Below are positions 5,512 through 63,718 of a DNA stretch of 64,000 nucleotides, piece by piece. The notes beneath the pieces are model-generated. The model made no database searches and was not told where the DNA came from. It saw only the letters and a list, made by a program, of their open reading frames with translations. The stretch is from an uncultured delta proteobacterium (GTDB lineage: Bacteria; Myxococcota_A; Polyangia; Haliangiales; Haliangiaceae), in NCBI GenBank assembly GCA_963848295.1, contig CAWKDB010000010.1, positions 1,856,001 to 1,920,000 on the forward strand, written 5' to 3'. The position numbers were made by a program, and so were the translations under genes. Each line of letters opens with the position of its first letter. The stretch's first letter is position 1.

Positions 5512-6266
5512 TGCGCGACCCATCCGCCATCGACCGCGATCGGCTGACCCGTCACGAACGAGGCCGCGTCCGAGCACAGCCAGACCACCGCCTCGGCGAC
5601 CTCTTCTGGCTTGCCGAGCCGGCCGATCGGCTCGCCGGCAACGAGCTGCTGCTGGATCTGCGCTTCGCCGTGTGCGAACCGGTCGATCATCGGTGTCTTG
5701 ATCACGCCCGGACACACCGCGTTGACGCGGATATTAGACTTCGCGAGCTCGATTGCTCCGGTCTTCGTCAAGCCGACGACGCCGTGCTTCGCCGCGACAT
5801 AGGCCGGGATGCCGACGAAGCCGACCAGCCCGGCGACCGACGCGCAATTCACGATCGCCCCAGCGCCTTGCTTCAGCATCTGCGGGATCTCGTGCTTCAT
5901 GCACAACCAGATGCCCTTCAGGTTGATGCCGAGCACGCGGTCCCAGTTCGCTTCGCTGCACCCGGAGATCGAGCTTTGTTCGCCTTCGATGCCCGCGTTG
6001 TTGAAGGCGCAATCGATCCGGCCGAAGGTCTCGATCGTCTTGCCGAGTGCGGACCGCACGTCGCTGTCCTTCGAGACGTCGCACGAAACATAGAGTGCGC
6101 GCGCGCCGCGAGCTTCGACGAGACGTGCGGTCTCGCGTCCGCCGTCGGCGAGCACATCGGCGATTGCGACATTGGCTCCCTCGCGCGCGAACGCGAGGGC
6201 GGTAGCGCGACCGATTCCAGAAGACGCGCCGGTGATGAAGACGACCTTGTTTGACATGATGTTCAT
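5508..6266 (-). CDS. SDR family oxidoreductase (glucose 1-dehydrogenase-like)
   Basis: TGASSGIG, NNAG, YVAAK, VDGG. Confidence 0.93.
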   Translation of the reverse strand: MNIMSNKVVFITGASSGIGRATALAFAREGANVAIADVLADGGRETARLVEARGARALYVSCDVSKDSDVRSALGKTIETFGRIDCAFNNAGIEGEQSSISGCSEANWDRVLGINLKGIWLCMKHEIPQMLKQGAGAIVNCASVAGLVGFVGIPAYVAAKHGVVGLTKTGAIELAKSNIRVNAVCPGVIKTPMIDRFAHGEAQIQQQLVAGEPIGRLGKPEEVAEAVVWLCSDAASFVTGQPIAVDGGWVAQ

Positions 6267-6278
6267 GACGATCGGGTC

Positions 6279-6294
6279 AGCAACGACCGTGCCG
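6279..6294 (-). promoter_or_regulatory. sigma54 -24/-12 promoter (SDR-DUF2267)
   Basis: CGGCACGGTCGTTGCT; ATG 6266 is 14 nt after the -12 C. Confidence 0.85.
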
Positions 6295-6313
6295 CCGTTG
6301 TTCTCGCAAAACG

Positions 6314-6326
6314 CGCAGATCGTGCG
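6314..6326. promoter_or_regulatory. CGCA-N5-TGCG palindrome
   Basis: CGCAGATCGTGCG, 20 nt from the promoter. Confidence 0.6.
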
Positions 6327-6329
6327 GCA

Positions 6330-6387
6330 TCGGAAGACCGCCGTGACCTCGGCGAGATCGGCTCAGCTCCACGGCCGGGTCTTCCGA
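6330..6387. repeat. Imperfect inverted repeat / stem-loop
   Basis: TCGGAAGACC-G-CCGTG ... CACGG-CCG-GGTCTTCCGA. Confidence 0.5.
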
Positions 6388-6390
6388 GAC

Positions 6391-6591
6391 ATGGAGTCGA
6401 CGTTCGACCTCGCACGAGGTCGTGCTCGAGCGGTCGCACCAACGTCAGCACCGTATGTCGCGATTCGCGCTGCGTTTCGTGCGGCGCGGCGTCAGTTACA
6501 GGAGAGCGCGCATCGTTTGCGCGGCGACGTCAAGAATGAAGTAATCGCTGCGCGCGCGGCACGAGATTTCGCCCGCGTGAGCACTCCGTAG
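6391..6591 (+). pseudogene. Remnant of HPF/RaiA-family ribosome-associated protein
   Basis: PYVAIRAAFRAARRQLQESAHRLRGDVK resembles the last helix of HPF/RaiA(-cold shock domain) proteins; the rest is missing. Confidence 0.55.
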
Positions 6592-6675
6592 CGAACCGCG
6601 ATCGAGCAAGTCGGTCGCGGATCTCGAGATGGCAAGGCGCGCAGATCGCCAGAAGATTGCCGTAAGCGCGCTCGT

Positions 6676-6691
6676 TGGAACGTGGGATGCA
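6676..6691 (+). promoter_or_regulatory. sigma54 promoter (USP)
   Basis: TGGAACGTGGGATGCA; ATG 6704 at 14 nt. Confidence 0.8.
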
Positions 6692-6703
6692 GCGGTAGCG
6701 GGC

Positions 6704-7588
6704 ATGTTCAAGAAGATCTTGTGCCCGATCGACTTCTCGATCGATTCCAAGACTGCCTTGCAGGTCGCGGTTCGAATGGCGGTGGACGCTGATGCCGAGT
6801 TGGAGCTCGTGCACGTATGGAATCTACCCGTCATGCCTTCGAGCCGGTTTCCACTGCCGGTCGACGCGGTCGAGCTCGTGATGAACGAACAAGAACGCGA
6901 GCTCGCGTCGGCAGCGCGCGATGCGTCGCGATTGGGTGCGAAGAACGTGACCACCAAGCTCATCAACGGAGCGGCGTGGGATCGGATCGTCCACGCGGCC
7001 GCCGATGCGGTCGATCTCGTGGTGATCGGAACGCGTGGACGAACGGGGATCGCACGCGTGCTACTCGGATCGGTCGCCGAGAAGGTCGTCCGTCATGCTG
7101 CGTGCTCGGTGCTCGTGGCGCGGCCTCGGGGCGACGCGAAGGCATTCGAGCGCGTGCTATGTCCGGTCGATTTCTCCGATAGCTCGAAGCAGGCGGTCGA
7201 GCTTGCTGCACAGCTCGCCGCGCCGCGCGGGGCAGGTATCACGCTGTTCCACGCCATCGAGATCCCGGCCATCTATTACGACGAGGCGTTGCCGCCGGAC
7301 TTTCTCGGAGACGTCGAGAAGCAGACGACGCACCTGATCGAGCAGTGGGCGGCCGATCTGAGGACGAAGACGTCGGTTCCGGTCACCACGGAGCTCCAGA
7401 CCGGCGGGGCCGGAGCGCGGATCCTCGATAGGCTCGATGGCGCCACGTATGACCTCGTGGTCGTCGGTAGTCACGGACGGACCGGACTCCAGCGGGTACT
7501 GCTGGGTTCCACCGCCGAGAAGGTCGTTCGCCACGCGCCGTGCTCGGTGCTCGTGGCGAGGGCTCGCACTACTCCAGGGCCACGATGA
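6704..7588 (+). CDS. Tandem-domain universal stress protein
   Basis: Two Usp domains: LCP(I/V)DFS ... G(T/S)xGRTG...LLGSxAEKVVRHAxCSVLV. Confidence 0.95.
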   Translation: MFKKILCPIDFSIDSKTALQVAVRMAVDADAELELVHVWNLPVMPSSRFPLPVDAVELVMNEQERELASAARDASRLGAKNVTTKLINGAAWDRIVHAAADAVDLVVIGTRGRTGIARVLLGSVAEKVVRHAACSVLVARPRGDAKAFERVLCPVDFSDSSKQAVELAAQLAAPRGAGITLFHAIEIPAIYYDEALPPDFLGDVEKQTTHLIEQWAADLRTKTSVPVTTELQTGGAGARILDRLDGATYDLVVVGSHGRTGLQRVLLGSTAEKVVRHAPCSVLVARARTTPGPR

Positions 7589-7891: not shown

Positions 7892-8197
7892 TCACGTTCT
7901 CGCGATCTCGCGCTCGTCGTCGCGCTGTTCTGCATCTTCGAGCACAAGCTGTTCGAGGATGGCGCGAACTTCCGCTTCACGCGCAGACGGCGGCTCGTGA
8001 CGGGACTCTCCGAACGTGTCCTCGTCTTCAATCGCTGCGACCGCCGCGGTCACTTCATCCAGGGTCGCGCCGGTGACGAGCAGCTGCTCGATCGCGAGCG
8101 GCTCGAGCTCTCCCAAAACGGCGATCAGCTCGGCGGCAGTAGCGGGTCGATCAGCCGAGCGATCATGAACGCTCGTGGTGGTCCTGGGTTCGATCAT
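7892..8197 (-). CDS. Small acidic hypothetical protein (101 aa)
   Basis: Protein-like from ATG 8197; has its own sigma54 promoter. Confidence 0.65.
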   Translation of the reverse strand: MIEPRTTTSVHDRSADRPATAAELIAVLGELEPLAIEQLLVTGATLDEVTAAVAAIEDEDTFGESRHEPPSAREAEVRAILEQLVLEDAEQRDDEREIART

Positions 8198-8209
8198 AGC
8201 TATGAGCGC

Positions 8210-8225
8210 TGCACGCGTCGTGCCG
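8210..8225 (-). promoter_or_regulatory. sigma54 promoter
   Basis: CGGCACGACGCGTGCA; ATG 8197 at 14 nt. Confidence 0.8.
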
Positions 8226-8267: not shown

Positions 8268-11976
<3,709 letters not shown>

Positions 11977-11990: not shown

Positions 11991-12006
11991 AGCAAGTGAC
12001 GTGCCG
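11991..12006 (-). promoter_or_regulatory. sigma54 promoter (small ORF-ligA-polX)
   Basis: CGGCACGTCACTTGCT. Confidence 0.85.
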
Positions 12007-12038: not shown

Positions 12039-12054
12039 TGGCTCGGCCCTTGCT
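12039..12054 (+). promoter_or_regulatory. sigma54 promoter (CBS protein)
   Basis: TGGCTCGGCCCTTGCT; ATG 12067 at 14 nt. Confidence 0.85.
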
Positions 12055-12066
12055 CGACTGCCGAGC

Positions 12067-12609
12067 ATGAAGACTTCCCTGCCCACATCACGCGCACGCG
12101 ATCTCATGGAGCGCGACGTCATCACGGTCACGCCGGAGACGCGCATCCTCGATCTCCACCGGTTACTCGTCGAAGAAGAGATCCATGGCGCGCCGGTCGT
12201 CGGAGACGACGGTCGCGTCCGCGGGGTCGTCTCGGCGCTCGATCTCCTGCGCGTCGTTCGCGACGAGCTGGAGCCCGGGGCCGGCGCCACCGCCACGACG
12301 TACTTTCGCGACGAGCTTCCCTATTCTGGCCCGGACTGGCTGGCGATGCCGGAGGACTTTCAAGATCGCATGCAAGACCTCACGGCCGAAGACGCGATGA
12401 CGAAAGCGCTCGTGACCGTTGGACCGGACGCGGCCGTCGATGACATCGCACGCACGATGCTCGAGCATCGCGTGCACCGCGTTCTCGTGTGCGACGACGA
12501 GGCGCTGCTCGGCGTGATCAGCGCGTTCGATCTGCTGCGGGTGTTGTGTCGAATTCCGGCGACCCGGCCGCTGGATTCAGCGACCCGCCACACCGGCTAT
12601 AGTCGCTGA
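12067..12609 (+). CDS. CBS-domain pair protein
   Basis: ARDLM...VITVTPET, GAPVV, GVVSALDLL, plus a second CBS repeat. Confidence 0.92.
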   Translation: MKTSLPTSRARDLMERDVITVTPETRILDLHRLLVEEEIHGAPVVGDDGRVRGVVSALDLLRVVRDELEPGAGATATTYFRDELPYSGPDWLAMPEDFQDRMQDLTAEDAMTKALVTVGPDAAVDDIARTMLEHRVHRVLVCDDEALLGVISAFDLLRVLCRIPATRPLDSATRHTGYSR

Positions 12610-13551: not shown

Positions 13552-14019
13552 TCACGCGGGTCGCTTGCGCTTCTGATACGTAGCCACCAGCGTTGCTTCG
13601 GCCAGGATGTGACCAGCCATCGCGCGCTCGAGCTCGACCTTCGTCGGGCGTGCGAGCTCGAGGATGCGGTCGAGCGCGTAGAGCTTGAACACGTACCGGT
13701 GGCGACCGATCGGCGGACACGGACCGCCCCACGCCGCGCGTTTCCAGTCATTCAGACCGACGTGTCCGTTTGCGAGCTTTCCGATGCTCTCGTGGAGACC
13801 CTGACGGGTAGGTGGCAGATCGACGATCACCCAATGCACCCACGTCGTGGTCGGTGCTTCGGGATCGGGAGCATCTGGATCGTCGACGATCAGCGCCAGG
13901 CTGCGCGCCTGCGACGGCACGTCGATCCAATCCAGAGGTGGCGATACGTCGATGCCGTCGCAGGTGTACTTCGTCGGGATCTCGCCGCCGTCGCGAAACG
14001 CTGGAGACGTGAGCTTCAT
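13552..14019 (-). CDS. YbhB/YbcL Raf kinase inhibitor-like (PEBP) protein
   Basis: DDPDAP, WVHW, GPCPP, HRYVF. Confidence 0.95.
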   Translation of the reverse strand: MKLTSPAFRDGGEIPTKYTCDGIDVSPPLDWIDVPSQARSLALIVDDPDAPDPEAPTTTWVHWVIVDLPPTRQGLHESIGKLANGHVGLNDWKRAAWGGPCPPIGRHRYVFKLYALDRILELARPTKVELERAMAGHILAEATLVATYQKRKRPA

Positions 14020-14031
14020 GGCGCTTCCGGC

Positions 14032-14047
14032 TGCACGGGTCGGGCCA
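14032..14047 (-). promoter_or_regulatory. sigma54 promoter (YbhB)
   Basis: TGGCCCGACCCGTGCA; ATG 14019 at 14 nt. Confidence 0.8.
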
Positions 14048-14090: not shown

Positions 14091-16352
<2,262 letters not shown>

Positions 16353-17541: not shown

Positions 17542-17557
17542 CGGCACGTCGCATGCT
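17542..17557 (+). promoter_or_regulatory. sigma54 promoter (PCM-Ere)
   Basis: CGGCACGTCGCATGCT; ATG 17570 at 14 nt. Confidence 0.85.
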
Positions 17558-17569
17558 CTTGGCTGCCGT

Positions 17570-21986
<4,417 letters not shown>

Positions 21987-22012: not shown

Positions 22013-22099
22013 CGCATTCCGCGCGGTCAAATGACCGGCGCCGCAAGCGCTGCGCGATCGGCCATCCGCTGCGGTCGCACGGCTGGCGATGTTCCTGCA
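22013..22099 (+). promoter_or_regulatory. Paired palindromes plus sigma54 promoter
   Basis: CGCATTCCGCGCG 22013, CGCAAGCGCTGCG 22042; TGGCGATGTTCCTGCA 22084-22099; ATG 22112 at 14 nt. Confidence 0.75.
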
Positions 22100-22111
22100 T
22101 CGAGTCGTTCC

Positions 22112-22810
22112 ATGTCGGAGCGCAAGTGCCTCACGTGTCCGCTCACCGCCCGGCTCACCCAGATCGATCTCGACCGGACGCGGCTCGGAATTGTGATCGA
22201 GGCCTGTGACCGCTTCGAGCCTCGCACCGCGATCGCGTGCAGCCGCGAGTGCGCGCGCCGGATGGATCGGCGCGAGCGAGCCGAGGGCGGCGGTCCCCGA
22301 GAACGAGTCCTTGTCGTCTTTTCGGGCCGCGACGGCCGGAGCGAGGTGGTCGCGCGTGTCCTATCGGAGACCTTCGTTGGCGACGGTTTCGACGTCGAGC
22401 TCGGGAACGCCGACACGGGTGCGGCGCCTCCTGCCGATTACGACGCGATCGTCATCGGCTTGGCGCTCCGTTTCGGCGTCCGCGCGCCGAACGCCATCGA
22501 CTACATCATGCGTCATCGCGACGTCCTCGGAACGATGCCCGCATTCGTGTTCTTCGTCGCGCACGACCTCGTCGCGCGCGGTACAGACGAGTACCTCCGC
22601 AGGTTGACCCGGCGCACGCGCTGGCAACCTACCGACGCGGCGACGTTCACGCCCCCGCACGTCGAGCACGGTGCGCTCTGGGGCTGGCTAGCGTGGTTTC
22701 GCGATCACTCGAGAGCAGCATCCACGCGGGTGCTGGTCGATTGGTCGCTGCCGGTCCGGGCTTGGGCGCTGCAGATCGCGGACGCCGTTCCGACCAGCGC
22801 CGGCGCATGA
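22112..22810 (+). CDS. Flavodoxin-like (HemG-type) domain with Cys-rich N-terminal extension
   Basis: RVLVVFSGRDGRSEVVA ... DYDAIVIG; N-terminal CxxC...C...CxxxC. Confidence 0.65.
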   Translation: MSERKCLTCPLTARLTQIDLDRTRLGIVIEACDRFEPRTAIACSRECARRMDRRERAEGGGPRERVLVVFSGRDGRSEVVARVLSETFVGDGFDVELGNADTGAAPPADYDAIVIGLALRFGVRAPNAIDYIMRHRDVLGTMPAFVFFVAHDLVARGTDEYLRRLTRRTRWQPTDAATFTPPHVEHGALWGWLAWFRDHSRAASTRVLVDWSLPVRAWALQIADAVPTSAGA

Positions 22811-23738
22811 GCCGCGGCGCGAGTTCGCCCGGACGACTCCTCCGGATCCAACCGATCGCGGTCGAATAGTCGACTTCGGGGCTCTCGGACTCGTGAATCG
22901 ACGTCCACAGCCACACGACGGTCCACCGAGCACTGGCCGTGCCGGGAACTCTCCGGTATCCGCGGACGCGAGCGCGAGTGCGGGGACTACTACGACGTAG
23001 TACCGGCGGCGCCGACCGAGAGCCGGGTAGCGTGAGGTGATCCGCAGGGGCTCGATGAGGGAACCGGATCGCTCGAACATCCGCCACGCGGCGCGCATCG
23101 TCACCGCAACGGAAGCGCGCGAGTGGGTCGCCGAGGGCGCGCAACGTCTTGCCGTCCCAGCGAGCGCATCCGTGCGAAGGGATGCCGTACACCTCGGCCT
23201 CGTCACCGGATCGGCGCGCCAGCTCGGCGAGCTCGCTCCAGCCGTCGGCCTCGCCGTGGGTGTCGAACGACGCCGGCACGACGCCGAGGCACGCGAACAC
23301 CTCGGGCTCGCGACGCGCCGGAAACCGGATCCAGTGCCGACCGAGCAAGATCGCGCCGGCCGAGATGCCTTCCATCGGTTTGCCAGCCAGGGCGAGCTCG
23401 CGAACATAGGGCGCCAGGTCGCGGTCGTCGATCAACGCCATGCCGCGCTCGACATCACCGCCGGTGAAGAACACGAGGTCCGCGTCGGCGAGCTGGGTGC
23501 GGATCGCGCTCGTGGTCCGACTCCGCTTCGAGAGCTCGATCGGGACGATCCTCACGCGCGTGCCGAATACGAGCCGTTCGATCCGCACCGCGAAGCTTGG
23601 ATCGTCGTTCGCCGCGGCCCCGACGAACGCGATCATAGGCCGCGCAACGCCGATCGCGGCGATACATTCGCGGTGATAACGAACGGACTGCCGTGAAGTC
23701 TCGGGACCAGCCCCTGCGATCAGATATGCACTCGACAC
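22647..23738 (-). CDS. Peptidase S51 (dipeptidase E/cyanophycinase-like); last ~130 aa look like read-through
   Basis: ADLVFFTGGD, GISAGA nucleophile elbow, FDTH; homology appears to end near 23100. Confidence 0.65.
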   Translation of the reverse strand: MSSAYLIAGAGPETSRQSVRYHRECIAAIGVARPMIAFVGAAANDDPSFAVRIERLVFGTRVRIVPIELSKRSRTTSAIRTQLADADLVFFTGGDVERGMALIDDRDLAPYVRELALAGKPMEGISAGAILLGRHWIRFPARREPEVFACLGVVPASFDTHGEADGWSELAELARRSGDEAEVYGIPSHGCARWDGKTLRALGDPLARFRCGDDARRVADVRAIRFPHRAPADHLTLPGSRSAPPVLRRSSPRTRARVRGYRRVPGTASARWTVVWLWTSIHESESPEVDYSTAIGWIRRSRPGELAPRLMRRRWSERRPRSAAPKPGPAATNRPAPAWMLLSSDRETTLASPRAHRARRAGA

Positions 23739-25021: not shown

Positions 25022-25053
25022 ATTTCTCATCCGACGCTCGAACGGCGATCGAG

Positions 25054-25141
25054 CGCAGGGTTTGCGCCGGTCGCGCGCTGCACCGCAAGGTCCGCGCGCA
25101 TCTCGAGCGAACGGGGGCGACATCATGGAATGCGCCATGCA
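25054..25141 (+). promoter_or_regulatory. Paired palindromes plus sigma54 promoter (BON-pfk)
   Basis: CGCAGGGTTTGCG 25054, CGCAAGGTCCGCG 25084; TGGAATGCGCCATGCA 25126-25141; ATG 25155 at 15 nt. Confidence 0.75.
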
Positions 25142-25154
25142 ACCTGCCTCCGTC

Positions 25155-34156: not shown

Positions 34157-34223
34157 GATGCGACCTCACGGTGAGCTGGATGAAGCGGCATCGATGACCG
34201 AGTCCGCTGACGCGATCACGAGT

Positions 34224-35250: not shown

Positions 35251-35269
35251 CGGTGCTTGCTCGGAACAC

Positions 35270-35419: not shown

Positions 35420-35435
35420 GGGCACGACACCTGCA
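35420..35435 (+). promoter_or_regulatory. sigma54 promoter (glgP)
   Basis: GGGCACGACACCTGCA. Confidence 0.7.
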
Positions 35436-35482
35436 CTTCACACGTCGCCGCCGGCACGTGCAGATCGCCGTTCGAGCAAGCC

Positions 35483-38120: not shown

Positions 38121-38136
38121 CGGCATGGTCGATGCA
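38121..38136 (+). promoter_or_regulatory. sigma54 promoter (N-ATPase operon)
   Basis: CGGCATGGTCGATGCA; ATG 38149 at 14 nt. Confidence 0.8.
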
Positions 38137-38148
38137 AGCGATGCTCTT

Positions 38149-40147
<1,999 letters not shown>

Positions 40148-46075: not shown

Positions 46076-46082
46076 GGCGCCC

Positions 46083-49460: not shown

Positions 49461-50041
49461 CGCAGAGTCCGCAGCAACTCGCGGATGCGCGGCCACTCGT
49501 CGGCCGCGTGACTCGGCTCCGCCGCGCACAGGTCGGCGAACGCCACCAGCTCGCAATGCACGGGCTCGCGCACGGTTTCTGAGAGCCCGCGCACGAGCTC
49601 GCCGAGCGTCGCGAGCTCGCCATGGACCCAGGCCCAATCGCCACCGATGGTGAGCTCGCCGATCACGGTCTTGGCCCACGGTGATCCGTCGCGCTCCGCG
49701 AGGATGGCGGCGAGGTGGGCATGCGCAGCGAGCAGCGCGCCGTAAGCCGTAGCCACTTCTCGATCAGCGATGGCGTCGGGGTCGATCGCCCGAGAGCCGC
49801 GCCGAGGCCACGGAATCGACGTGAGCATGAACAGCCCGCCGATCGCGGCTCCGAGACTCCAGAGCGACGTTAGAGGTAGCGATGCGATCAGGCAGGCGAA
49901 TGCGAGCAGAGCCGCAACGCCGGATCCGAATACGAACGGCGCCGGCATGCGATCCGCCAACGATCGTCGGCAACAGCTCGCGTCGTGCACCGGGACGAGT
50001 GCCACGCTGCGCTCATCGAGTGAGTGAGATGTCGAGTCCAT
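49457..50041 (-). CDS. Hypothetical membrane protein
   Basis: Two hydrophobic segments; coupled to glgX; has its own sigma54 promoter. Confidence 0.6.
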   Translation of the reverse strand: MDSTSHSLDERSVALVPVHDASCCRRSLADRMPAPFVFGSGVAALLAFACLIASLPLTSLWSLGAAIGGLFMLTSIPWPRRGSRAIDPDAIADREVATAYGALLAAHAHLAAILAERDGSPWAKTVIGELTIGGDWAWVHGELATLGELVRGLSETVREPVHCELVAFADLCAAEPSHAADEWPRIRELLRTLR

Positions 50042-50053
50042 GGCTCGAGCGTT

Positions 50054-50069
50054 TGCAGGGACCGCGCCA
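50054..50069 (-). promoter_or_regulatory. sigma54 promoter (hypothetical-glgX)
   Basis: TGGCGCGGTCCCTGCA; ATG 50041 at 14 nt. Confidence 0.8.
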
Positions 50070-51783: not shown

Positions 51784-52928
51784 GACGCCAGCGGGGGGGC
51801 GAGATGCGTGGGGTAGCCGCGCACCGCGCGGAGCTCGAGCGTTCGCGCGATGTCGCGCGGTCCGACTAGCCCTGTCACCGTTGCGGGTGGGTCAACCGCG
51901 ACGACGTAGCTCGCGCCCTCCTCGGCCGCTGCGCGGAGTGCTTCATTGGCACCCGCGGTTTCCGAAACGATCACGTATCGCGCATGAAGATGAGCTGTGA
52001 GCGATCCTATCGGCGCGGTGGGACGCAGGCGCGAGAGTCGCGATACGTCGTCGGCCTCGATCACCGCGATCGGCCGACGCCGATCGACCACGACAAGCTC
52101 GAGCCGATCGAGCTCTGACATCCGGCGAAGTGCGTCGTCGAGATATTCGTCGCTTCCGATCACCGGTGGTTGTTTGCGACTCGGAAGGAAGTCCGTAACC
52201 CGGAGATCGCTCAGACGCTGGCTGATGCGCTCGCTAGCACCCTCCGCCGTGGCGCCGGAGTAGATGAACAGTGCGATCAAACCGAGCAACAGGTTGACTT
52301 GAAGGATGGCCAGGACACCCAGTCCGATCGCGAACAGCCTACCGATCGCGGTCGCGATCGCCGTTGCACGGCCCAGACCGAGCCGGGCGGCGAGCACGGC
52401 GCGGAAGATGCGACCGCCGTCCATGGGGAACGCCGGCAGCAAGTTGAAGAGACCGAGCGTCATGTTCATCGCCGCTACGTAGAACAGGGCCATCTGGAGG
52501 TCGGCGCGACCACCGAACACCGCGTAGCCGACGAAGCTCAGTGCGCCGATCGCAAAGCTTGCTGCCGGACCGGCCGCGGCCATGAGCGCTTGGTGCAGCG
52601 GTCGAGTCGGGGCTCGCGAGATCTGAGACACGCCGCCGATCAACATCAGCGTTATCGAGCGAACGCGACCGCCATAACGTAGGGCGAGCATCGTGTGCGC
52701 GAGCTCGTGCAGCGCGACGGATGCAAACAACGCCGCTGCGAGCAACGCACCCCAGACGATGGGTGGCAACGTCAGCCGTGTTTGCTCGACCCCAGCAAGA
52801 TCCGCGATCGAACCGAACTGATACGACAGTGCGACCGCGAGGTATGGAATGACGAGCAGTAACGTCCAGTGCGCCCGTACCGGGACGCCGCGAACGCGAA
52901 ACAACGTGAGCGAGCCGTCGCGAATCAT
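51780..52928 (-). CDS. Site-2 protease (M50) with degenerate CBS domains
   Basis: HELAH, AGP, FNLLPAFPMDGG; ATG 52928. Confidence 0.93.
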   Translation of the reverse strand: MIRDGSLTLFRVRGVPVRAHWTLLLVIPYLAVALSYQFGSIADLAGVEQTRLTLPPIVWGALLAAALFASVALHELAHTMLALRYGGRVRSITLMLIGGVSQISRAPTRPLHQALMAAAGPAASFAIGALSFVGYAVFGGRADLQMALFYVAAMNMTLGLFNLLPAFPMDGGRIFRAVLAARLGLGRATAIATAIGRLFAIGLGVLAILQVNLLLGLIALFIYSGATAEGASERISQRLSDLRVTDFLPSRKQPPVIGSDEYLDDALRRMSELDRLELVVVDRRRPIAVIEADDVSRLSRLRPTAPIGSLTAHLHARYVIVSETAGANEALRAAAEEGASYVVAVDPPATVTGLVGPRDIARTLELRAVRGYPTHLAPPLAS

Positions 52929-52940
52929 GGGACCTCGCGT

Positions 52941-52956
52941 TGCATCGTGCGTGCCG
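52941..52956 (-). promoter_or_regulatory. sigma54 promoter (S2P operon)
   Basis: CGGCACGCACGATGCA; ATG 52928 at 14 nt. Confidence 0.85.
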
Positions 52957-53844: not shown

Positions 53845-54449
53845 CGCTTCCACGCCCAGATCAACGGCTCGCGGCGCGTGGTCGGCTGCGCCGGAGCGGC
53901 GGGCACGCCGACGATGATCGGCGCGAACGTCGTCACGTCCGGTGGAATGCCGAGCTCGGCCTTCGTCGCCGGGTCACCGAGCGCGATCACCGCTAACCCG
54001 ATCGGACAGGTCGCGAGGCCCATCGCCGTCGCAGCGATCATCAGGTTCTCCGCGGCGAGCCAGCAGTCCGCGGTAACGAACGAGCTGCCCGGCCGTCCGC
54101 AGATCACGATCAGCGTGCCCGCGTTGTAGAAGATGTTGAACGCGGGATTACCGAACATCGCTGGTCGCCGCGGCGCCGAGGGCTCGCGCGCGAGCTCGCG
54201 ATGAGCCGCACCCTGCGGTGCGGCAACGAGCTCCTTCGCCCGGTCGGAGATCCGCCGGAGTAGTGCGGCGTCTTGGACGACGACGAACGCCCACGGCTCG
54301 ACATGCATCGCAGTGGGAGCGTGGACCGCCGCGGAGAGCAGCTCGCGAATCGCAGGCTCGGTGGCCAGATCGGGCGTGAAAGCACGCGTCGCGTGACGTG
54401 CGTAGATCGCATCGAGTGCGGACATCGTGGCGCGAGGAGACGTGATCAT
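53841..54449 (-). CDS. Nitroreductase family protein
   Basis: RHATRAF, APTA...PWAF, AAENLMIAA. Confidence 0.88.
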   Translation of the reverse strand: MITSPRATMSALDAIYARHATRAFTPDLATEPAIRELLSAAVHAPTAMHVEPWAFVVVQDAALLRRISDRAKELVAAPQGAAHRELAREPSAPRRPAMFGNPAFNIFYNAGTLIVICGRPGSSFVTADCWLAAENLMIAATAMGLATCPIGLAVIALGDPATKAELGIPPDVTTFAPIIVGVPAAPAQPTTRREPLIWAWKR

Positions 54450-54461
54450 GACGACCACCGG

Positions 54462-54583
54462 TGCACACCGCGTACCTTGTGGTTCGCGTGCTTTGCCGCC
54501 GGGGCGCGCAAGTCGTGCGCGTCGTCGCCAGCGCCCGCAAGGTGTGCGCGGAATTCGTTCGCCGCGCGGGCCTTGCGTTTGCA
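54462..54583. promoter_or_regulatory. Divergent sigma54 promoters sharing two perfect palindromes
   Basis: (-) AGGTACGCGGTGTGCA 54462-54477 (ATG 54449 at 14 nt); CGCAAGTCGTGCG 54507; CGCAAGGTGTGCG 54536; (+) GGGCCTTGCGTTTGCA 54568-54583 (GTG 54597 at 15 nt). Confidence 0.8.
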
Positions 54584-54596
54584 CTTCGGCCGACGG

Positions 54597-55709
54597 GTGA
54601 CCGTGTGGCACATCGATACGAGCCCGGGCCGGATCTCGCTGGCCGGCGCGTTCGGCACAGCGGAGGCCGCCGCGATATGGGCGGTGCTGCAGCGCCACGC
54701 CCGCGAGCTTCCCCGTGCCTGCGGCGTCGACCTCGAGCTCGCGAAGGCAACGACGATCGACGGGACCGTGATGGCTTTGCTCGTCGATCTCCGCGCGTCT
54801 CTTGCGCGCCGCGGCATCGCCGCGCGGATCACCGGCGCGAACGAGTCACTCGGCAGGCTTGTCCACCTCTACGGCGGTGATCGCGCGCCGAGCGAGGCAT
54901 CGACAGAGCACCGCGAGCCGGTGATCGCCCGCGTCGGCGGCGCGATCGCTGCTACGGCGCGGCGTGGCCGCGGTCTCGTCGAATTCGCCGGCGAGCTCGT
55001 GCACGGCGCGGTTGCGGTCATTCGGCAGCCCTCGATCGCTGGCTGGCGCGAGCTCGGCCCACTGGTCGCGCGCACGGGCGCAGACGGCATCGCGATCGTG
55101 CTCGTGCTCGATTTCTTGGTCGGCTTTGTCATGGCGTACCAGTCGACGCGTCAGCTACAGACGTATGGCGCGAACCTCTACGTCGCAGACATCGTCGGGA
55201 TTTCGATGCTACGCGAGCTCGCCCCGTTGATCACCGCGATCATCATCGCCGGCCGATCCGGTGCCGGCTTCGCCGCCGAGCTCGGCACGATGCGCGTCTC
55301 CGAAGAGATCGACGCGCTGCGTACGATGGGCATCGCGCCGGTGCCGTATCTCGTCGTTCCGCGCATCGTGGCGCTCGCGATCGCGGCGCCGGTGCTCGTG
55401 CTCGTCGGCGACCTCGCCGGGGTCATGGGTGGGCTCGTGGTCGGCGCGATGACCCTCGACGTCCATCCCCACGCATACCTGACCGAGCTGCGCGAGGTGA
55501 CCGTCGCGTCGGACCTGTGGACCGGCCTGGTCAAGAGCATCGCGTTCGGGATCGCGATCGCGATCATCGGCTGTCAGCAGGGCCTGACCACGCGCGGCGC
55601 GGCATCAGGCGTTGGCCGCAGTACGACGACGACCGTCGTCGCGTGCCTATTCATGCTGGTCGCGATCGATACCGGGCTGACCATGCTGTTCAGGGGAATC
55701 GGCGCATGA
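54597..55709 (+). CDS. mlaE: STAS-MlaE permease
   Basis: RELAP, AGRSG, ELGTM..SEEIDAL, GVGRSTT. Confidence 0.92.
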   Translation: MTVWHIDTSPGRISLAGAFGTAEAAAIWAVLQRHARELPRACGVDLELAKATTIDGTVMALLVDLRASLARRGIAARITGANESLGRLVHLYGGDRAPSEASTEHREPVIARVGGAIAATARRGRGLVEFAGELVHGAVAVIRQPSIAGWRELGPLVARTGADGIAIVLVLDFLVGFVMAYQSTRQLQTYGANLYVADIVGISMLRELAPLITAIIIAGRSGAGFAAELGTMRVSEEIDALRTMGIAPVPYLVVPRIVALAIAAPVLVLVGDLAGVMGGLVVGAMTLDVHPHAYLTELREVTVASDLWTGLVKSIAFGIAIAIIGCQQGLTTRGAASGVGRSTTTTVVACLFMLVAIDTGLTMLFRGIGA

Positions 55710-57962: not shown

Positions 57963-58886
57963 CTAGTGACGCGCCACGACTGCCGAATGCCAGCGCTCGG
58001 TCGGCGCTGCGGTCGAGAACATCGGGATCCGGCCGGTGCTCGCAGGTTCGACCTCGGGCGTCGCGGCCGAGATCGCCCGTGCGAACTGTGGAGCGCTGCG
58101 AAAGCGTGCGACCGGTGCCTTCTCGAGAGCGCGCAGAATGACACGCTCGATCGCGACGGGGATCGTGCGGTCTGGACAGCGCAGGCTTGGTGGGACGACA
58201 TCGTCCTCGAGGTGGCGCATCAGGATCTCGCGTGACGCACCACCGGCGAACGGCGTCGTGCCCGTGAGCAGCTCGTACAGCAGCGCGCCGACCGAGTAGA
58301 GATCCGACTCGAGCACGGCCCCCTCGCCGCGGATCACTTCCGGCGCCATGTAGTCGGGCGTCCCGGACGCCAAGCCGTCGCGTGCTGGCGCAACCTCTGA
58401 ACGCGACCGCATCAGCCCGAGATCGATCAGCGTCACGCGATCGCCGTCGTCGATCAGGACGTTCTCGGCCTTGACGTCGCCGTGAACGAAGCCTGCAGCG
58501 TGAATCGCGTGTAGACCCGCGAGCACCTGCCGAATGATCGCGGAGATGCGGCCGAGTGCGAGCGGTGCTTGCTCGACGAGGACGTCGCGCAGCGAGCGAC
58601 CGGGCGCCAGCTCCATCACGAGATACGGCTCGCGACCGGGCGTAGTCCCCCACGCCCTGACCGCGACGACGTTGCTGTGCGAGATCCGGCCGATCGCGCG
58701 CGACTCGCCCCGCAGGTCGCTGCGGGCGACCGGGTCCGACAGGAGCTCGGACCGCAGGACCTTGACCGCGACATCGCAGCCGCGCTCGAGATCGCGGGCC
58801 CGATAAACCACGCCCATCCCACCGGCGCCGATCAGCGGGCCGACCTGATAGCGACCCGCGAGTAGGCTCGTAGTCTCCTCCGGCAC
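57963..58886 (-). CDS. Hanks-type Ser/Thr protein kinase (non-RD)
   Basis: GAGGMG, VAVK, HGDVKAEN, DLG, YMAPE; GTG 58886. Confidence 0.92.
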   Translation of the reverse strand: MPEETTSLLAGRYQVGPLIGAGGMGVVYRARDLERGCDVAVKVLRSELLSDPVARSDLRGESRAIGRISHSNVVAVRAWGTTPGREPYLVMELAPGRSLRDVLVEQAPLALGRISAIIRQVLAGLHAIHAAGFVHGDVKAENVLIDDGDRVTLIDLGLMRSRSEVAPARDGLASGTPDYMAPEVIRGEGAVLESDLYSVGALLYELLTGTTPFAGGASREILMRHLEDDVVPPSLRCPDRTIPVAIERVILRALEKAPVARFRSAPQFARAISAATPEVEPASTGRIPMFSTAAPTERWHSAVVARH

Positions 58887-58898
58887 GCGGGGAGTCAG

Positions 58899-58914
58899 AG
58901 CATGCAACGTGCCG
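58899..58914 (-). promoter_or_regulatory. sigma54 promoter (kinase)
   Basis: CGGCACGTTGCATGCT; GTG 58886 at 14 nt. Confidence 0.8.
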
Positions 58915-59031: not shown

Positions 59032-59047
59032 CGGCACGACCGATGCA
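59032..59047 (+). promoter_or_regulatory. sigma54 promoter (CBS protein)
   Basis: CGGCACGACCGATGCA; ATG 59063 at 17 nt. Confidence 0.8.
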
Positions 59048-59062
59048 GCCTCCGTAACTGCC

Positions 59063-59452
59063 ATGTTGATCCCACCGATCTCGCGCTATATGACTCCGAC
59101 TCCGTTCGTCATCGAAGAACGGATGCGTTTGACCGAGGCCGGTGAGCTGATGCGCGAGCACCGCGTAGGTCACCTTCCCGTGGTCGACCATGGCCGACTT
59201 GTCGGGCTTGTCTGCAAGCACGACCTGCTGCGTATCCATAGTCCAGATGACGTCGTGCAGGATGCGATGTCTCCGGCGACGACCGTCGGTGCGGCCACGC
59301 CGATCGATGAGGTCGTCGCGCTGATGGAGACCAAGCAAGCCGGTTCGGTCGTTGTCGTCCAGGATGCCGACGTCACCGGTATCTTCACTCGCACCGATGC
59401 CATGCGCGCGCTCGTCGATCTACTCCGCCACACCGGCGAGAGCGAGCGGTAA
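59063..59452 (+). CDS. CBS-domain pair protein
   Basis: YMTPTP, HLPVV, GIFTRTD. Confidence 0.9.
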   Translation: MLIPPISRYMTPTPFVIEERMRLTEAGELMREHRVGHLPVVDHGRLVGLVCKHDLLRIHSPDDVVQDAMSPATTVGAATPIDEVVALMETKQAGSVVVVQDADVTGIFTRTDAMRALVDLLRHTGESER

Positions 59453-59519: not shown

Positions 59520-59747
59520 CTAGCGCCGTCGCAACGCGCGCACCGCGAGCATGCCTATGCCGATCGCGACGAGGATCGCGACTGTCGGGTGGTCCGCAAC
59601 CGCATTTACGAGCTTGCGGCCAGGGGCTGGTTCGCGGCGGTCTCTGCGAAAGTCCGCGACCTCGCCGGCGATCGCGTCATAGAAGCCGGTGAGATCGGTG
59701 GCGAGTCTATCGAGACGGGTGCCCAACGTGACATTCGATTCCATCAT
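59520..59747 (-). CDS. Small tail-anchored protein (ElaB/DUF883-like C-terminus)
   Basis: VADHPTVAILVAIGIGMLAVRALRRR. Confidence 0.65.
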   Translation of the reverse strand: MMESNVTLGTRLDRLATDLTGFYDAIAGEVADFRRDRREPAPGRKLVNAVADHPTVAILVAIGIGMLAVRALRRR

Positions 59748-59760
59748 GTAAACCCGTCCA

Positions 59761-59776
59761 AGCACGGCCCGTGCCG
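59761..59776 (-). promoter_or_regulatory. sigma54 promoter
   Basis: CGGCACGGGCCGTGCT; ATG 59747 at 15 nt. Confidence 0.8.
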
Positions 59777-59813: not shown

Positions 59814-60521
59814 TCATCTGTCTCTCAACATGGAGTGACAGTGCGCGCACGTAATAAGGATCCGACCGAACAATTCCGCACGAGCGTCCTGCGTTGGCGT
59901 GTCGAGCGCGCGGTTCGCGTACAGCTTGATGCGAGCGACGTCGTCGATATCGTCGTCGGGTGAACGCGTCGACCGCTGAGCGAGGATGCTCGCGGGCATC
60001 TTCGTCAGACCCGAGGCGCCGGTCTGCCACAGATCATCGGCGGGTCCGATCACTCCCTGCCACATCTGGAGTGCCGACCATTGATGACCCGCCATGTCGC
60101 TTGCGAGCGTGTCACGGACAATCGGTGGACGCGCGGCGGGGAAAGTGACGTGCGCCCCGGTCGCCTCGTGGCATTGGCCGCAAGCACGTCCGAGGGCAGC
60201 CGCACTCTCCGCCGCGGAGTCGAGACCCGTAGCGATCGCAATGCGATGTGCGTCGGTACGGACTACTTGAAGATACGGTTGCCACTGCGCGAGGATCTCG
60301 GGTTCGTCGAAGTCGAGCGTGTGCGCGTCCGCGCGAGCCGTATAGAGATCGCTGTGGGCGATCGCCTTCTCCATCTCCATCGCTGCGCTGTACCGAAGGT
60401 GCATCTCCTGCTCGGCGGCAAGGATGCTCGACGCGAGGGAAGGATCGCGCGTCGCAGGCACCAAGTCGTGGGTCTCGCACGCCGCTAGACACGCAACGCA
60501 GACTGAGATCGACCGGATCAT
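59814..60521 (-). CDS. Diheme c-type cytochrome lipoprotein, paralog B
   Basis: Lipobox LAAC; CGQCH and CAHCH. Confidence 0.8.
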   Translation of the reverse strand: MIRSISVCVACLAACETHDLVPATRDPSLASSILAAEQEMHLRYSAAMEMEKAIAHSDLYTARADAHTLDFDEPEILAQWQPYLQVVRTDAHRIAIATGLDSAAESAAALGRACGQCHEATGAHVTFPAARPPIVRDTLASDMAGHQWSALQMWQGVIGPADDLWQTGASGLTKMPASILAQRSTRSPDDDIDDVARIKLYANRALDTPTQDARAELFGRILITCAHCHSMLRDR

Positions 60522-60533
60522 GCCTCGCGCTAC

Positions 60534-60621
60534 AGCACGCGACGTGCCGACCGGAACGCGAGGATCCGACCGCGTTTGCGCAATCGCTGCTGCACGATCC
60601 TGCCATCGCGCAAGCCGTGCG
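60534..60621 (-). promoter_or_regulatory. sigma54 promoter plus paired palindromes
   Basis: CGGCACGTCGCGTGCT 60534-60549 (ATG 60521 at 14 nt); CGCAATCGCTGCT 60579, CGCAAGCCGTGCG 60609. Confidence 0.8.
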
Positions 60622-60750
60622 GACCTTCATCGCTACTCGACCCCTCCGGTTTCGTAGCGGGACTCGAGCCGCGATCGCGCACATCTCGCGTGGCGCCGAA
60701 CAAGGAACGTGATTCGTTCGCGATGTGCGTGCACTGCGGCCCTCACTCAC

Positions 60751-60766
60751 TGGCGCGCACCTTGCT
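60751..60766 (+). promoter_or_regulatory. sigma54 promoter (small ORF-BON)
   Basis: TGGCGCGCACCTTGCT. Confidence 0.85.
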
Positions 60767-60801
60767 CTTGGCTCGTTCACACCCTTCAAGGAGCAATCGA
60801 G

Positions 60802-60891
60802 ATGACCGACATCGTAAAGAAGGCGAGGCGCCCAGGCCAAGAAAATCGCGATCTCGACCGGCACTTCAAAGTCGTAGGGAGGACACCGTGA
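60802..60891 (+). CDS. 29-aa small ORF coupled to the BON gene
   Basis: AAGGAG SD; MTDIVKKARRPGQENRDLDRHFKVVGRTP; GTGA overlap. Confidence 0.5.
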   Translation: MTDIVKKARRPGQENRDLDRHFKVVGRTP

Positions 60892-61544: not shown

Positions 61545-61645
61545 TTCAAGCGTCGGTCCGCCGACCCACGATCCTGTGGCTGTCGCTCAGCTCCCATCGC
61601 GGCCTGGCGCCGATGTCGATCCAAACCCGGGTCCGGGCGACTCGG

Positions 61646-62353
61646 CTAATCGCGCTTCTGCTTGTCGGCAACGGCGTGGCAGCCCGCGCAGGTGACGAGC
61701 AGCTCGCCGTAGGCAGTCGCCCGGTCGGCTGCAGTATCGGTTGACCCTCGCTTGCGTGCGCGGTCTGCAACGTCGTGGATTCGACGAGCGAGGAGCGAGC
61801 GGTCGGCGTCGTCGGCCGGCCATGGAAGCGGTGCCTGTGCGAGCACGTCGAGCCCAGCCCGCCACGGATCATCGACAGCGCCGATCACGCCTTCGCGGAC
61901 GCGCTCGACGGCCCAGAGGTGGCGCATCATGCGGGCTTCAACGGTCGGTCGGTCCGGCGGCAGCTCGGGCGGGATGCGAAACTCGGGCACCGCGTTCGTA
62001 TCGACGTGGCAATTCGCGCAGGCCTCGGCCAACCTCGCCGTTCGGCGGCACGCCTCGTCGACGCTGGTCGCATTCGCGAGCGCGGTTGCACGGTCCCGAA
62101 CGAGCGCAGCTTGAGTCGCCCACGCCGACAGTCCGGCTTCATCAGGCGCGATACCGATCGAGCGTGCGAGATCGCGAGCTTCGTCGAGCTTGCCGTGAAC
62201 CAGGAGATGCTCGATCGCCCCGAACATCGAGTAGCTCTCGTGCATGTGAAAGCGCGCCATCATATCGTGCTCGAACTGCTTGCTCGGCGGTTGGTCGGCG
62301 TAGCTCGTACCACAGGCGATCAGCGCGAGCATGAGGAGTGGGCTTGGGCGCAT
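61646..62353 (-). CDS. Diheme c-type cytochrome lipoprotein, paralog C
   Basis: Lipobox LIAC; CANCH and CAGCH. Confidence 0.8.
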   Translation of the reverse strand: MRPSPLLMLALIACGTSYADQPPSKQFEHDMMARFHMHESYSMFGAIEHLLVHGKLDEARDLARSIGIAPDEAGLSAWATQAALVRDRATALANATSVDEACRRTARLAEACANCHVDTNAVPEFRIPPELPPDRPTVEARMMRHLWAVERVREGVIGAVDDPWRAGLDVLAQAPLPWPADDADRSLLARRIHDVADRARKRGSTDTAADRATAYGELLVTCAGCHAVADKQKRD

Positions 62354-62365
62354 GTTCGTACCTCG

Positions 62366-62442
62366 TGCACGCTCCGTTCCCGCTGGTGCCGGCCCAAGCG
62401 CGCAATCCTTGCGTCTCTGCGGTTCGCTCCGCAGTCAATGCG
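62366..62442 (-). promoter_or_regulatory. sigma54 promoter plus two perfect palindromes
   Basis: GGGAACGGAGCGTGCA 62366-62381 (ATG 62353 at 14 nt); CGCAATCCTTGCG 62401, CGCAGTCAATGCG 62430. Confidence 0.8.
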
Positions 62443-62451
62443 CGAAGGTCG

Positions 62452-63162
62452 TTACGCGAACCGGTTACGGGAGATAAACGCCGCTGGATCGCGCCGCACT
62501 CTCGGACCGGTCGAACACCCGATCGCGTGACCGATGCGGATCGCATAAGCAACGCGCCATGGGGCGGGAATACCGAGCACGCGCTTGACGGCGGGTTCGG
62601 CGCCTTCACCGCTGAACGCGCTCACGACCTGAACGTCGAGACGCGCCGCTTGCGCGGCGAGCCACATGTTCTCGAGGACGCAGCCGAGGCTGATCGTTCC
62701 AAGCACGTCGCCTTCGGATGCCGGTGCTCGGATGCTCGGGTCGAACACGACGACGATCACCATCGGCGCACCCGCGATGGTCTCGCCGAGCAAGCGCGAT
62801 AGGTTTGTGGGAACGCGCTGCAGATCGCCCGTACGCCAGGCCGGCGGAAACGTACTTCCGAGAATGCCAACCCGGCGCGCGGCGAGCTCTTCCGGGGACC
62901 ATGACAACTGCCGGAAGTTCTCGACGATGAACGCCGGTGATACCGGAGCGCGGATCCGGCCGAGCTCGTCGAGCTTGGCTCGGTCGTCGACGACGACCAG
63001 ACGAAAGTTCTGCATGTTGTGCGCGGTCGGCGACCAGCGCGCCGCGTCGATGATGTCCGCAAGCTCGAGCTCGGTCACGGTGCGCGCCGGATCGAACGGC
63101 ACGCGCGAGGAGTGGCGCTGCTCGATCAACCATCGCATTCGGCAGGCGTTGTCAGGATCCAT
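62452..63162 (-). CDS. Nitroreductase family protein
   Basis: RHSSR, SPTAHNMQ, LENMWLAA. Confidence 0.88.
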   Translation of the reverse strand: MDPDNACRMRWLIEQRHSSRVPFDPARTVTELELADIIDAARWSPTAHNMQNFRLVVVDDRAKLDELGRIRAPVSPAFIVENFRQLSWSPEELAARRVGILGSTFPPAWRTGDLQRVPTNLSRLLGETIAGAPMVIVVVFDPSIRAPASEGDVLGTISLGCVLENMWLAAQAARLDVQVVSAFSGEGAEPAVKRVLGIPAPWRVAYAIRIGHAIGCSTGPRVRRDPAAFISRNRFA

Positions 63163-63174
63163 GATCAGCGACCG

Positions 63175-63190
63175 TGCACCCGGCGTGCCT
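63175..63190 (-). promoter_or_regulatory. sigma54 promoter (nitroreductase)
   Basis: AGGCACGCCGGGTGCA; ATG 63162 at 14 nt. Confidence 0.8.
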
Positions 63191-63336
63191 CATCGGCGCG
63201 CGATGCACCTAGTGAATTTTCAGCAGCGCGTGCGCGAGCTCGCGAGGCGTCAAGTGGCGCGACACGAGTGTCACGGTACGACGAAAGACTGAGGCGAGGG
63301 ACGAGCCAACCCCGCGCGACCAATCGCGGCGTGCGA

Positions 63337-63352
63337 TGGCATTCTCCTTGCT
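63337..63352 (+). promoter_or_regulatory. sigma54 promoter (lipoprotein)
   Basis: TGGCATTCTCCTTGCT; ATG 63365 at 14 nt. Confidence 0.85.
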
Positions 63353-63364
63353 GCCCGACGGCGC

Positions 63365-63718
63365 ATGAGGATCATCGCGGTCGTGCTCGCAGCGATCGGT
63401 TGCACGTCGCCCGCGCCGGACTATCCAAACTGTCCCGATACGCCGCCGCCGGCCTCGTGTCCGGGGATGTTCCCATGCGGCGCTGGTGGTCTGTTCTGCG
63501 ACGAGACCACGCAGTTCTGCGATCTCACCGCGGCGCCGAGGTGTGTGATCGCCAGCCTGAGCTCGGGCGAAGCGTGCCTGAGCAACGGCGACGTATCGCG
63601 CGTGATAGCGAGCACGCAGGAATGCGATGACTCCGGCGGCGGGCCGTCCGGGCCCTTCACCGACCCGGTGTGCTCGCGCGCGCAAGGCGGCATCGAGGTG
63701 TACTGCAACGGACCGTAA
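63365..63718 (+). CDS. Small Cys-rich lipoprotein
   Basis: Lipobox AIGC followed by about 10 Cys in 117 aa. Confidence 0.75.
   Translation: MRIIAVVLAAIGCTSPAPDYPNCPDTPPPASCPGMFPCGAGGLFCDETTQFCDLTAAPRCVIASLSSGEACLSNGDVSRVIASTQECDDSGGGPSGPFTDPVCSRAQGGIEVYCNGP

Follow-up and report, generated by a model that had tools for sequence, protein, structure and literature searches.

A sigma54-rich stretch of a myxobacterial genome was analysed for the distance between its promoters and the start codons behind them. The stretch, called the window below, comprises 64 000 nt (contig C10, positions 1856001-1920000) of a genome of 7.78 Mb (68 % GC, 85 % complete), and d denotes the number of nucleotides from the -12 C of a sigma54 site to the start codon's opening base. 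Roughly 40 % of consensus sigma54 sites lie 14-15 nt before a start codon, in this genome and in its relatives, and this short spacing is a rule of the lineage and not a property of the island within the window. Taken together, the spacing and the missing Shine-Dalgarno (SD) motif make it likely that the mRNAs begin at or beside the AUG, and the sites at d=14-15 are very probably best read as producing leaderless or near-leaderless mRNAs.

Sigma54 sites and start codons in the window

Sites were scored with a sigma54 matrix that had been trained without reference to start codons, using cut-offs of 9, 11 or 16 bits. Twenty-eight sites of at least 9 bits were found in the window, compared with 13.6 +/- 3.4 in 100 Markov-3 simulations (maximum 23), and 15 of these have ATG or GTG at d=14, compared with 0.41 simulated (maximum 3). 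The window is the densest of 119 bins of 64 kb, with 17 sites against a mean of 2.0. Consensus, GG-N10-GC spacing, intergenic position and the presence of rpoN and enhancer-binding proteins bear out an earlier proposal, made in a first-pass annotation of the window, that the promoters are of sigma54 type. RpoN is encoded by a single copy in the genome, and its best matches are Kofleriaceae records, with which it shares up to 93 % identity along the entire protein; about 60 of 77 Sigma54_activat matches in the genome are full-length. The sites share YGGCAC(G/A)-N5-TGC(A/T) and the GG-N10-GC geometry with canonical promoters described for E. coli (PMC4591121) and for rhizobial dctA, glnB and glnK (PMC3616915).

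Our own compilation for the window holds 27 plausible promoters; the first-pass annotation had counted 27 motifs and given coordinates for 20 starts. Sixteen of those had been placed at d=14, and a GG-N10-GC site stands at exactly this distance in all 16, with 13 reaching at least 9 bits by the start-blind matrix. The remaining three (22112, -0.1 bits; 62353, 6.5 bits; 54449, 7.8 bits) have the geometry and a weak matrix score, and a phased enhancer box lies at each. Two of three proposed d=15 starts (25155 and 59747) were recovered and the third (54597) agrees by geometry only (0.4 bits); the start at 59063 has d=17, as proposed. The interval 1-4.9 kb had been described as free of sites; only two weak ones (8.0 and 8.2 bits), both within open reading frames (ORFs), occur before 6.2 kb. 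SD motifs reported at long-leader genes were seen at katG (16283) and gap-pgk (19680); the third such start, 60802, belongs to an ORF of 29 codons, the BON gene itself beginning at GTG 60888. For 38149 the spacing was correct; the ORF begun there has 48 codons, and its stop overlaps the start codon of atpD (ATG 38292).

Spacing, SD motifs and start codons across the genome

A position weight matrix scan gave a peak at d=14, in the window relative to Markov-3 simulations and likewise across the genome. Among 94 strict sigma54 motifs, ATG occurs at d=14 in 35 and at d=15 in six, with zero, one and one at d=11, 12 and 13; when the matrix cut-off is raised to 16 bits, 42 of 111 sites have d=14 and 12 have d=15, with zero, zero and one at d=11, 12 and 13. 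Sites of at least 11 bits with ATG or GTG number 181 at d=14-15 compared with 62 summed over the six positions 8-13, and therefore about 160 are considered genuine. Intergenic sites that reach 11 bits number 306; the first start called behind them lies at d=14 in 86, at d=15 in 40, at d=16-19 in 28, at d=20-150 in 72 and at d=12-13 in three, and 77 have none. Strict sites are predominantly intergenic (84/94, compared with 13/121 for the reversed pattern), and the motif is carried by 37+18 operon-first genes as against 2+0 operon-internal genes.

SD-like motifs are rare at short distances (3/86 at d=14, 2/40 at d=15 and 1/28 at d=16-19) and frequent at d=20-150 (33/72; P=6e-14). The 3' end of the 16S rRNA, sought for its anti-SD sequence, was not found in the assembly, of which all but 8000 bases were covered. 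AUG is preferred at short distance (105/126, compared with 47/72 at long-leader promoters; P=0.005), with GTG still used in 21 of the 126. By coding score, the upstream in-frame extensions of the picked starts are non-coding in 82 of 95 cases, and a longer, misleading in-frame start is present in 111/150 such ORFs. A lipobox (loose pattern) follows at the N-terminus in 53/166 proteins, compared with 3/47 controls, 60/433 SD-led genes and 138/568 sigma70-leaderless genes. Codons picked next to a sigma54 site thus look like the real protein starts, judging from coding potential, N-terminal signals, the residues at which Pfam matches begin and the alignment of homologues, and the earlier claim that the spacing rule outperforms longest-ORF calls is sustained by the non-coding extensions and by lipoprotein signal peptides that begin at the picked ATG.

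The genome also has a strong sigma70-type leaderless signal, TAnnnT located 6-7 nt before ATG (291 and 279 occurrences, compared with a background of about 25). A TGCTAnnnT followed by 6-7 nt would put TGCT at the same distance from the start as the sigma54 sites do, and TGCW alone has a shoulder at d=13, so that TGC(T) could be the extended -10 element (TGnTAnnnT) of sigma70 leaderless promoters, with an incidental GG. Such mimicry was tested and rejected, and it has hardly any likelihood: TGnTAnnnT was found in 2/86 sites at d=14 and 1/40 at d=15, TAnnnT lies 5-8 nt before the start in 3/86, GGCAC itself peaks at the sigma54 position and phased enhancer boxes are located upstream. At operon-first genes of this genome the sigma70-type leaderless signal exceeds the SD signal.

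The fixed distance to AUG and the exclusion of SD motifs would also fit a ribosome-recruiting element, that is, a non-SD translation signal in the RNA of longer transcripts made from promoters further upstream; or sigma54 might bind only to repress, E. coli sigma54 being listed at many sites not known as promoters (PMC4591121). However, the motif is nearly missing before operon-internal genes (2 compared with 55), occurs also at variable long distances together with SD motifs, and shows a spacer whose length is kept and whose sequence is not, with activator boxes at helical-phase distances. A signal in RNA or a purely repressive role is very improbable on these grounds.

Position of the transcription start

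Pyrimidine-A steps were counted at 66 long-leader promoters, which were used because no AUG biases the count there. At d=14 and at d=15 there were 13 each (uncorrected P=9e-4 for either, with 18 positions examined), compared with 1-4 at the positions d=10 to d=13. C precedes the start in 70 of the 86 sites at d=14, and the distribution of distances rises abruptly at 14 and tails off beyond it, as does the sigma70 peak, which begins at the canonical spacer. Mapped rhizobial sigma54 starts, computed from supplement rows, lie at d=11, 13, 13, 14 and 14 in PMC3616915 (four 'virtual' rows left out) and at d=12 four times, 13 twice and 14 three times in PMC4842269 (one of ten rows left out); combined, 5/14 have d=14. 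With initiator steps at 14-15 and rhizobial starts at 11-14, promoters with d=14-15 therefore likely have leaders of 0-3 nt, a length that falls within a published definition of leaderless as 5 nt or fewer before the start (PMC12754779). This agrees with the very short leaders of 0-3 nt that had been proposed at first pass. The start position used there follows the textbook in placing +1 about 12 nt beyond the C; calibration within this genome points to 14-15, at which the d=14 class would be truly leaderless.

It is about an even chance that, in Kofleriaceae and related Polyangia, sigma54 polymerase places +1 on the A of AUG, 14 nt downstream of the -12 C, at about 40 % of promoters, which amounts to a -26/-14 geometry. 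This would define a lineage-wide, strictly leaderless, enhancer-controlled class of genes that includes an oxygen-sensing, NmpR-like dormancy programme lacking a 5' leader for post-transcriptional control. In the most likely mechanism, an activator would open the sigma54 complex at the -24/-12 site, transcription would begin at the AUG or no more than a few bases away from it (at d=14, sometimes 15), and the 5' end would be where ribosomes enter, by 70S-type initiation, as established for other leaderless mRNAs and described in PMC4117421. Translation in this genome is on this view leaderless in a general way, serving sigma70 promoters too; the ribosomes of the lineage evidently cope with leaderless mRNAs as a matter of routine, so that sigma54 promoters could lose their leaders.

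The same promoters may instead start at the textbook d=12-13, which would add 1-3 bases at the 5' end, stay within the 0-3 nt range and alter the geometry only. The -24/-12 naming implies this position, d=12 is assumed in PMC4591121, and nine of the 14 mapped rhizobial starts lie at d=11-13. However, the best-translated class, with AUG at +1, would then be expected at d=12-13, which is almost empty (3 of the 306 sites, and likewise in other genomes, see below); the sigma70 peak begins at its canonical 6-nt spacer; and initiator-type steps peak at 14-15. A start at d=12-13 is possible but somewhat doubtful. Two published tables touch on the subject: S. meliloti Table S10 has one leaderless RpoN start (SMa1828) among 35 rows, with a -24 box lacking GG and a search window that may limit d to 14, and the M. 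xanthus Cappable-seq table gives a start at -1 for MXAN_1525, in rows that could not be linked to sigma54 motifs (PMC8844925).

Distribution in other genomes

Forty-seven genomes were reached via RpoN matches (47 of 80 loci, picked for spread). The spacing recurs in these 47, in which 697 ATGs stand at d=14-15 and 53 at d=12-13. Of 758 strict sites in eight genomes of Kofleriaceae type, 287 have the short spacing. The corresponding figures are 43/799, with nine at d=12-13 for comparison, in 18 large genomes from the order to which an Anaeromyxobacteraceae record belongs (Myxococcales), and 3/156 in four Desulfobacterota-like genomes. Eighty genomes of this myxobacterial order gave 216 at d=14-15 compared with 46 at d=12-13. 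A draw from the phylum gave 531 sites in 150 genomes, mostly of the same class, a count that has no d=12-13 control and is indicative only.

Homologues of the gene at 17570 were compared individually (27 with upstream DNA; two more at contig edges were left out). An in-frame ATG lies at d=14 in 12, at d=15 in six, at d=16 in one and at d=18 in one; the others comprise one with an out-of-frame ATG at d=14, one with an SD-led (GGAGG) start at d=27 and five with no site. Three of the 12 sites at d=14 score below 7 bits. The spacers of these homologues have kept their length and are unrelated in sequence.

Stress genes and NmpR-type boxes

From 5.5 kb on, the window encodes Usp, CBS and BON proteins, katG, nitroreductases, an M50-CBS peptidase, a PCMT-esterase fusion, gap-pgk, pfk, phosphoenolpyruvate (PEP) synthase, pyruvate:ferredoxin oxidoreductase, glycogen enzymes, an alternate F1F0 ATPase and haem-motif lipoproteins, and by this content it reads as a gene island of low-oxygen or dormancy type. 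The mycobacterial DosR dormancy set contains similar genes (Usp, CBS, M50-CBS peptidase, nitroreductases, erythromycin-esterase fusion, APH/AAA kinase and pfk), although DosR works with a sigma70-family polymerase and the window promoters are sigma54-type. A tRNA-Val/Asp pair lies about 1.1 kb before the window, and a check for island borders found no tRNA genes within the window. The codon score of the island is lower (0.34, compared with 0.49), which does not establish a foreign origin.

The first-pass annotation had taken the window as one stress regulon with leaderless initiation as its translation route. The window and an island of Usp/CBS/BON type on contig C4 are indeed the two densest bins (17 and 15 sites, compared with a mean of 2.0), and leaderless genes have been tied to stress in C. 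jejuni (PMC3847290). However, 152 of the 181 short-distance promoters lie outside both islands, which are also the richest in sigma54 sites overall (28 and 21), and the sigma70 -10 peak in the genome is larger, with hundreds of sigma70 genes of leaderless type, so leaderless initiation is not stress-specific. Long leaders are present on the island stress and energy genes katG, gap-pgk, ppsA and glgP, and Caulobacter is reported to translate leaderless mRNAs normally in unstressed growth (PMC4117421). A stress-specific translation route is thus unlikely, and the short spacing is better regarded as a general feature of sigma54 promoters in the lineage.

The M. xanthus activator NmpR binds pairs of GCGCA-N5-TGCGC boxes 14-15 nt apart and controls oxygen-use genes including Usp and CBS genes (PMC11841059). 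Boxes of this type upstream of sigma54 sites peak at 36-37 and 65-67 bp in the genome. Phased slots, chosen after these peaks were seen, hold a box at 8/27 window promoters and at none in control slots; two of the promoters have box pairs with a 14-nt gap (54506/54535 and 62400/62429). The sigma54 match is weak at five of the eight, and the boxes thereby rescue several doubtful sites of the first-pass annotation. Among short-distance promoters, boxes occur at 10/15 in the C4 island, at 4/152 outside the islands and at 17/181 genome-wide, and the unit of box, promoter and ATG was found 39 times in 26 of 61 genus genomes, compared with two for the reversed arrangement. The genomes G010 and G334 are counted in denominators only, and no claim depends on either. 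Protoglobin histidine kinases lie beside NtrC-like activators at two loci, C4:57-58 kb and C10:4.211-4.213 Mb. No activator gene was found in the window, the nearest being about 32 kb upstream. An NmpR-like activator whose gene lies in another part of the genome probably drives a portion of the island, which would link that portion to oxygen sensing. One enhancer shared by the whole window was sought and not found, and with the one identifiable box on only 8/27 promoters a single regulon, as first assumed, is not shown.

The C4 island (C4:1-66000) has eight perfect NmpR-type boxes and is the second densest bin. Inside this island (L084, 12331-14925) lies an NtrC-like gene, and behind it a protoglobin kinase that is split between two frames because the gene is broken or the assembly is wrong there. 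A second protoglobin kinase/NtrC-like pair (L085, 990-16538) is accompanied by a PAS hybrid kinase, Usp, CBS, a multihaem MtrC-like cytochrome and complex I-like subunits.

Strength of the case and relation to known systems

Several points weigh against reading these promoters as leaderless. The whole case is built from sequence, in one uncultured genome that is 85 % complete, with gene calls throughout from our own hexamer model, and because the compared genomes are related their counts are not independent tests. The raw count of the strict motif is not enriched (94 compared with 121 for the reversed pattern, and likewise in many genomes), and such raw counts proved uninformative. The initiator-step calibration is modest (13/66 per position among 18 positions), and the rhizobial starts at d=11-13 correspond to leaders of 1-3 nt. 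The ORFs behind a few of the d=14 starts (22916, 38149 and 8197) are doubtful, and 19 of the 27 window promoters have no identifiable enhancer box.

Leaderless genes with a sigma70-type -10 box beside the ORF have been described in C. jejuni (PMC3847290), Caulobacter (PMC4117421), Deinococcus-Thermus (PMC12340547) and, for pexR, in myxobacteria (PMC12754779). They have in common with the sites described here a fixed distance between promoter and start, a preference for AUG and no SD motif. Unlike those sigma70/sigmaA-type promoters, the present ones are of sigma54 type and would depend on activators. In E. coli, the shortest coding leader among the 41 intergenic sigma54 sites of Table 1 is 18 nt (PMC4591121), whereas in the present genome roughly 40 % of consensus sites lie directly beside a start codon, without SD motif and with +1 placed by calibration at d=14-15. 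The NmpRSTU oxygen-utilization regulon of M. xanthus (PMC11841059) resembles the island in its paired boxes upstream of sigma54 sites, in protoglobin kinases beside NtrC-like activators and in Usp/CBS targets; the likeness is by boxes and gene content, the box is on only part of the window, and the target set here is larger, with an N-type ATPase, glycogen and pyruvate enzymes and cytochrome lipoproteins.

Literature searches found no description of sigma54 leaderless genes as a class, although single cases could sit in supplementary rows; the class appears to be a new pairing of two known mechanisms. Known leaderless mRNAs come from sigma70-type promoters and sigma54 promoters of model bacteria have SD-bearing leaders, so soil myxobacteria would, if the interpretation is true, join both at scale. 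Sigma54 initiation would then tolerate an AUG at the very beginning of the transcript, hundreds of natural landmarks would show the position at which sigma54 really initiates, leader-based control would be removed from these genes and their start-codon calls corrected. Any start-site model applied to these genomes would have to include a -24/-12 class.

Promoters and neighbouring genes of the window

Table 1. Sigma54 sites and NmpR-type boxes of the window with the genes behind them. Scores are matrix bits; box distances (bp) are from box centre to sigma54 site.
Coordinates	Strand	Score	Start and d	NmpR-type box	Gene or remark
6264..6294	-	18.5	ATG 6266, d=14		SDR dehydrogenase 5508-6266
6313..6327	.			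1 mismatch; centre 26 bp upstream of 6294 site	
6676..6706	+	14.0	ATG 6704, d=14		Tandem Usp 6704-7588, Pfam match from residue 1
8195..8225	-	16.4	ATG 8197, d=14		ORF of 101 aa without family
11991..12006	-	18.5	Long leader		Upstream of ligA-polX
12039..12069	+	13.9	ATG 12067, d=14		CBS-pair protein
14017..14047	-	12.5	ATG 14019, d=14		YbhB/YbcL protein, then DUF6629
16281..16331	-	7.9 (weak)	16283, d=34, SD		katG
17542..17572	+	20.8	ATG 17570, d=14		PCMT-erythromycin esterase fusion; d=14-15 in 18/27 homologues
19598..19682	+	8.4	19680, d=25, SD	Perfect, 19598-19612 (36 bp)	gap-pgk fusion
22041..22114	+	-0.1 (very weak)	ATG 22112, d=14	36 bp	Flavodoxin-like protein
22914..22944	-	15.9	GTG 22916, d=14		Frame of 89 codons, doubtful
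25053..25157	+	9.5	ATG 25155, d=15	Perfect (66 bp)	BON protein, then pfk
34154..34239	-	15.4	d=69		Operon of PEP synthase, pyruvate:ferredoxin oxidoreductase, DHODH-like
35248..35285	-	11.2	d=21		Nucleotidyltransferase
35420..35485	+	14.7	d=49		Alpha-glucan phosphorylase
38121..38295	+	12.7	ATG 38149, d=14		48-codon ORF; stop overlaps atpD ATG 38292 of alternate F1F0 (N-type) ATPase operon
50039..50069	-	11.6	ATG 50041, d=14		194-aa protein upstream of glgX-like gene
52926..52956	-	14.9	ATG 52928, d=14		M50 peptidase-CBS, then APH-like and AAA_33 kinases
54447..54549	-	7.8	ATG 54449, d=14	Paired, 54506-54520 and 54535-54549 (14-nt gap; 36, 65 bp)	Nitroreductase
54568..54599	+	0.4 (very weak GG-N10-GC)	GTG 54597, d=15	Pair shared with 54449 promoter	mlaE-type ABC operon
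58884..58914	-	20.0	GTG 58886, d=14		Ser/Thr kinase
59032..59065	+	17.7	ATG 59063, d=17		CBS-pair protein
59745..59776	-	16.4	ATG 59747, d=15		75-aa protein, hydrophobic C-terminus
60519..60622	-	19.8	ATG 60521, d=14	36, 66 bp	Lipoprotein, two CxxCH motifs
60751..60890	+	15.8	60802, SD		29-codon ORF overlapping BON gene start GTG 60888, which has its own SD
62351..62443	-	6.5 (weak)	ATG 62353, d=14	Paired, 62400-62414 and 62429-62443 (14-nt gap; 26, 55 bp)	Lipoprotein, two CxxCH motifs
63160..63190	-	14.5	ATG 63162, d=14		Nitroreductase
63337..63367	+	9.4	ATG 63365, d=14		Cys-rich lipoprotein

The stops of the short ORFs 38149-38295 (48 codons) and 60802-60891 (29 codons) overlap the next start (ATGA and GTGA), an arrangement in which translational coupling is possible, in the first case from a leaderless start. 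The strong sigma54 site at 22944 has no clear gene behind it, its GTG at d=14 standing before the doubtful 89-codon frame. In the surrounding region (22647-25021) long frames overlap on both strands, peptidase S51-like on the minus and CoA-ligase-like on the plus strand, and are possibly frameshifted. Behind the strong long-leader site near 12 kb lies an extra pair of NAD-dependent ligase and PolX (8268-11655), and at 19680-21986 GAPDH and phosphoglycerate kinase are fused in a single ORF. The predicted lipoproteins 59814-60521, 61646-62353 and 53074-53853 look related and have CxxCH haem motifs, two each in the first two; no Pfam family scored above cut-off for any of the three. The atpA gene of the alternate F1F0 ATPase is interrupted by an insertion sequence (43791-46083) that encodes a transposase of 752 aa on the minus strand (43801-46059). 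Seven further copies of this insertion sequence, more than 98 % identical, are present in the genome, and another atpD-like gene is located at C10:3744364.

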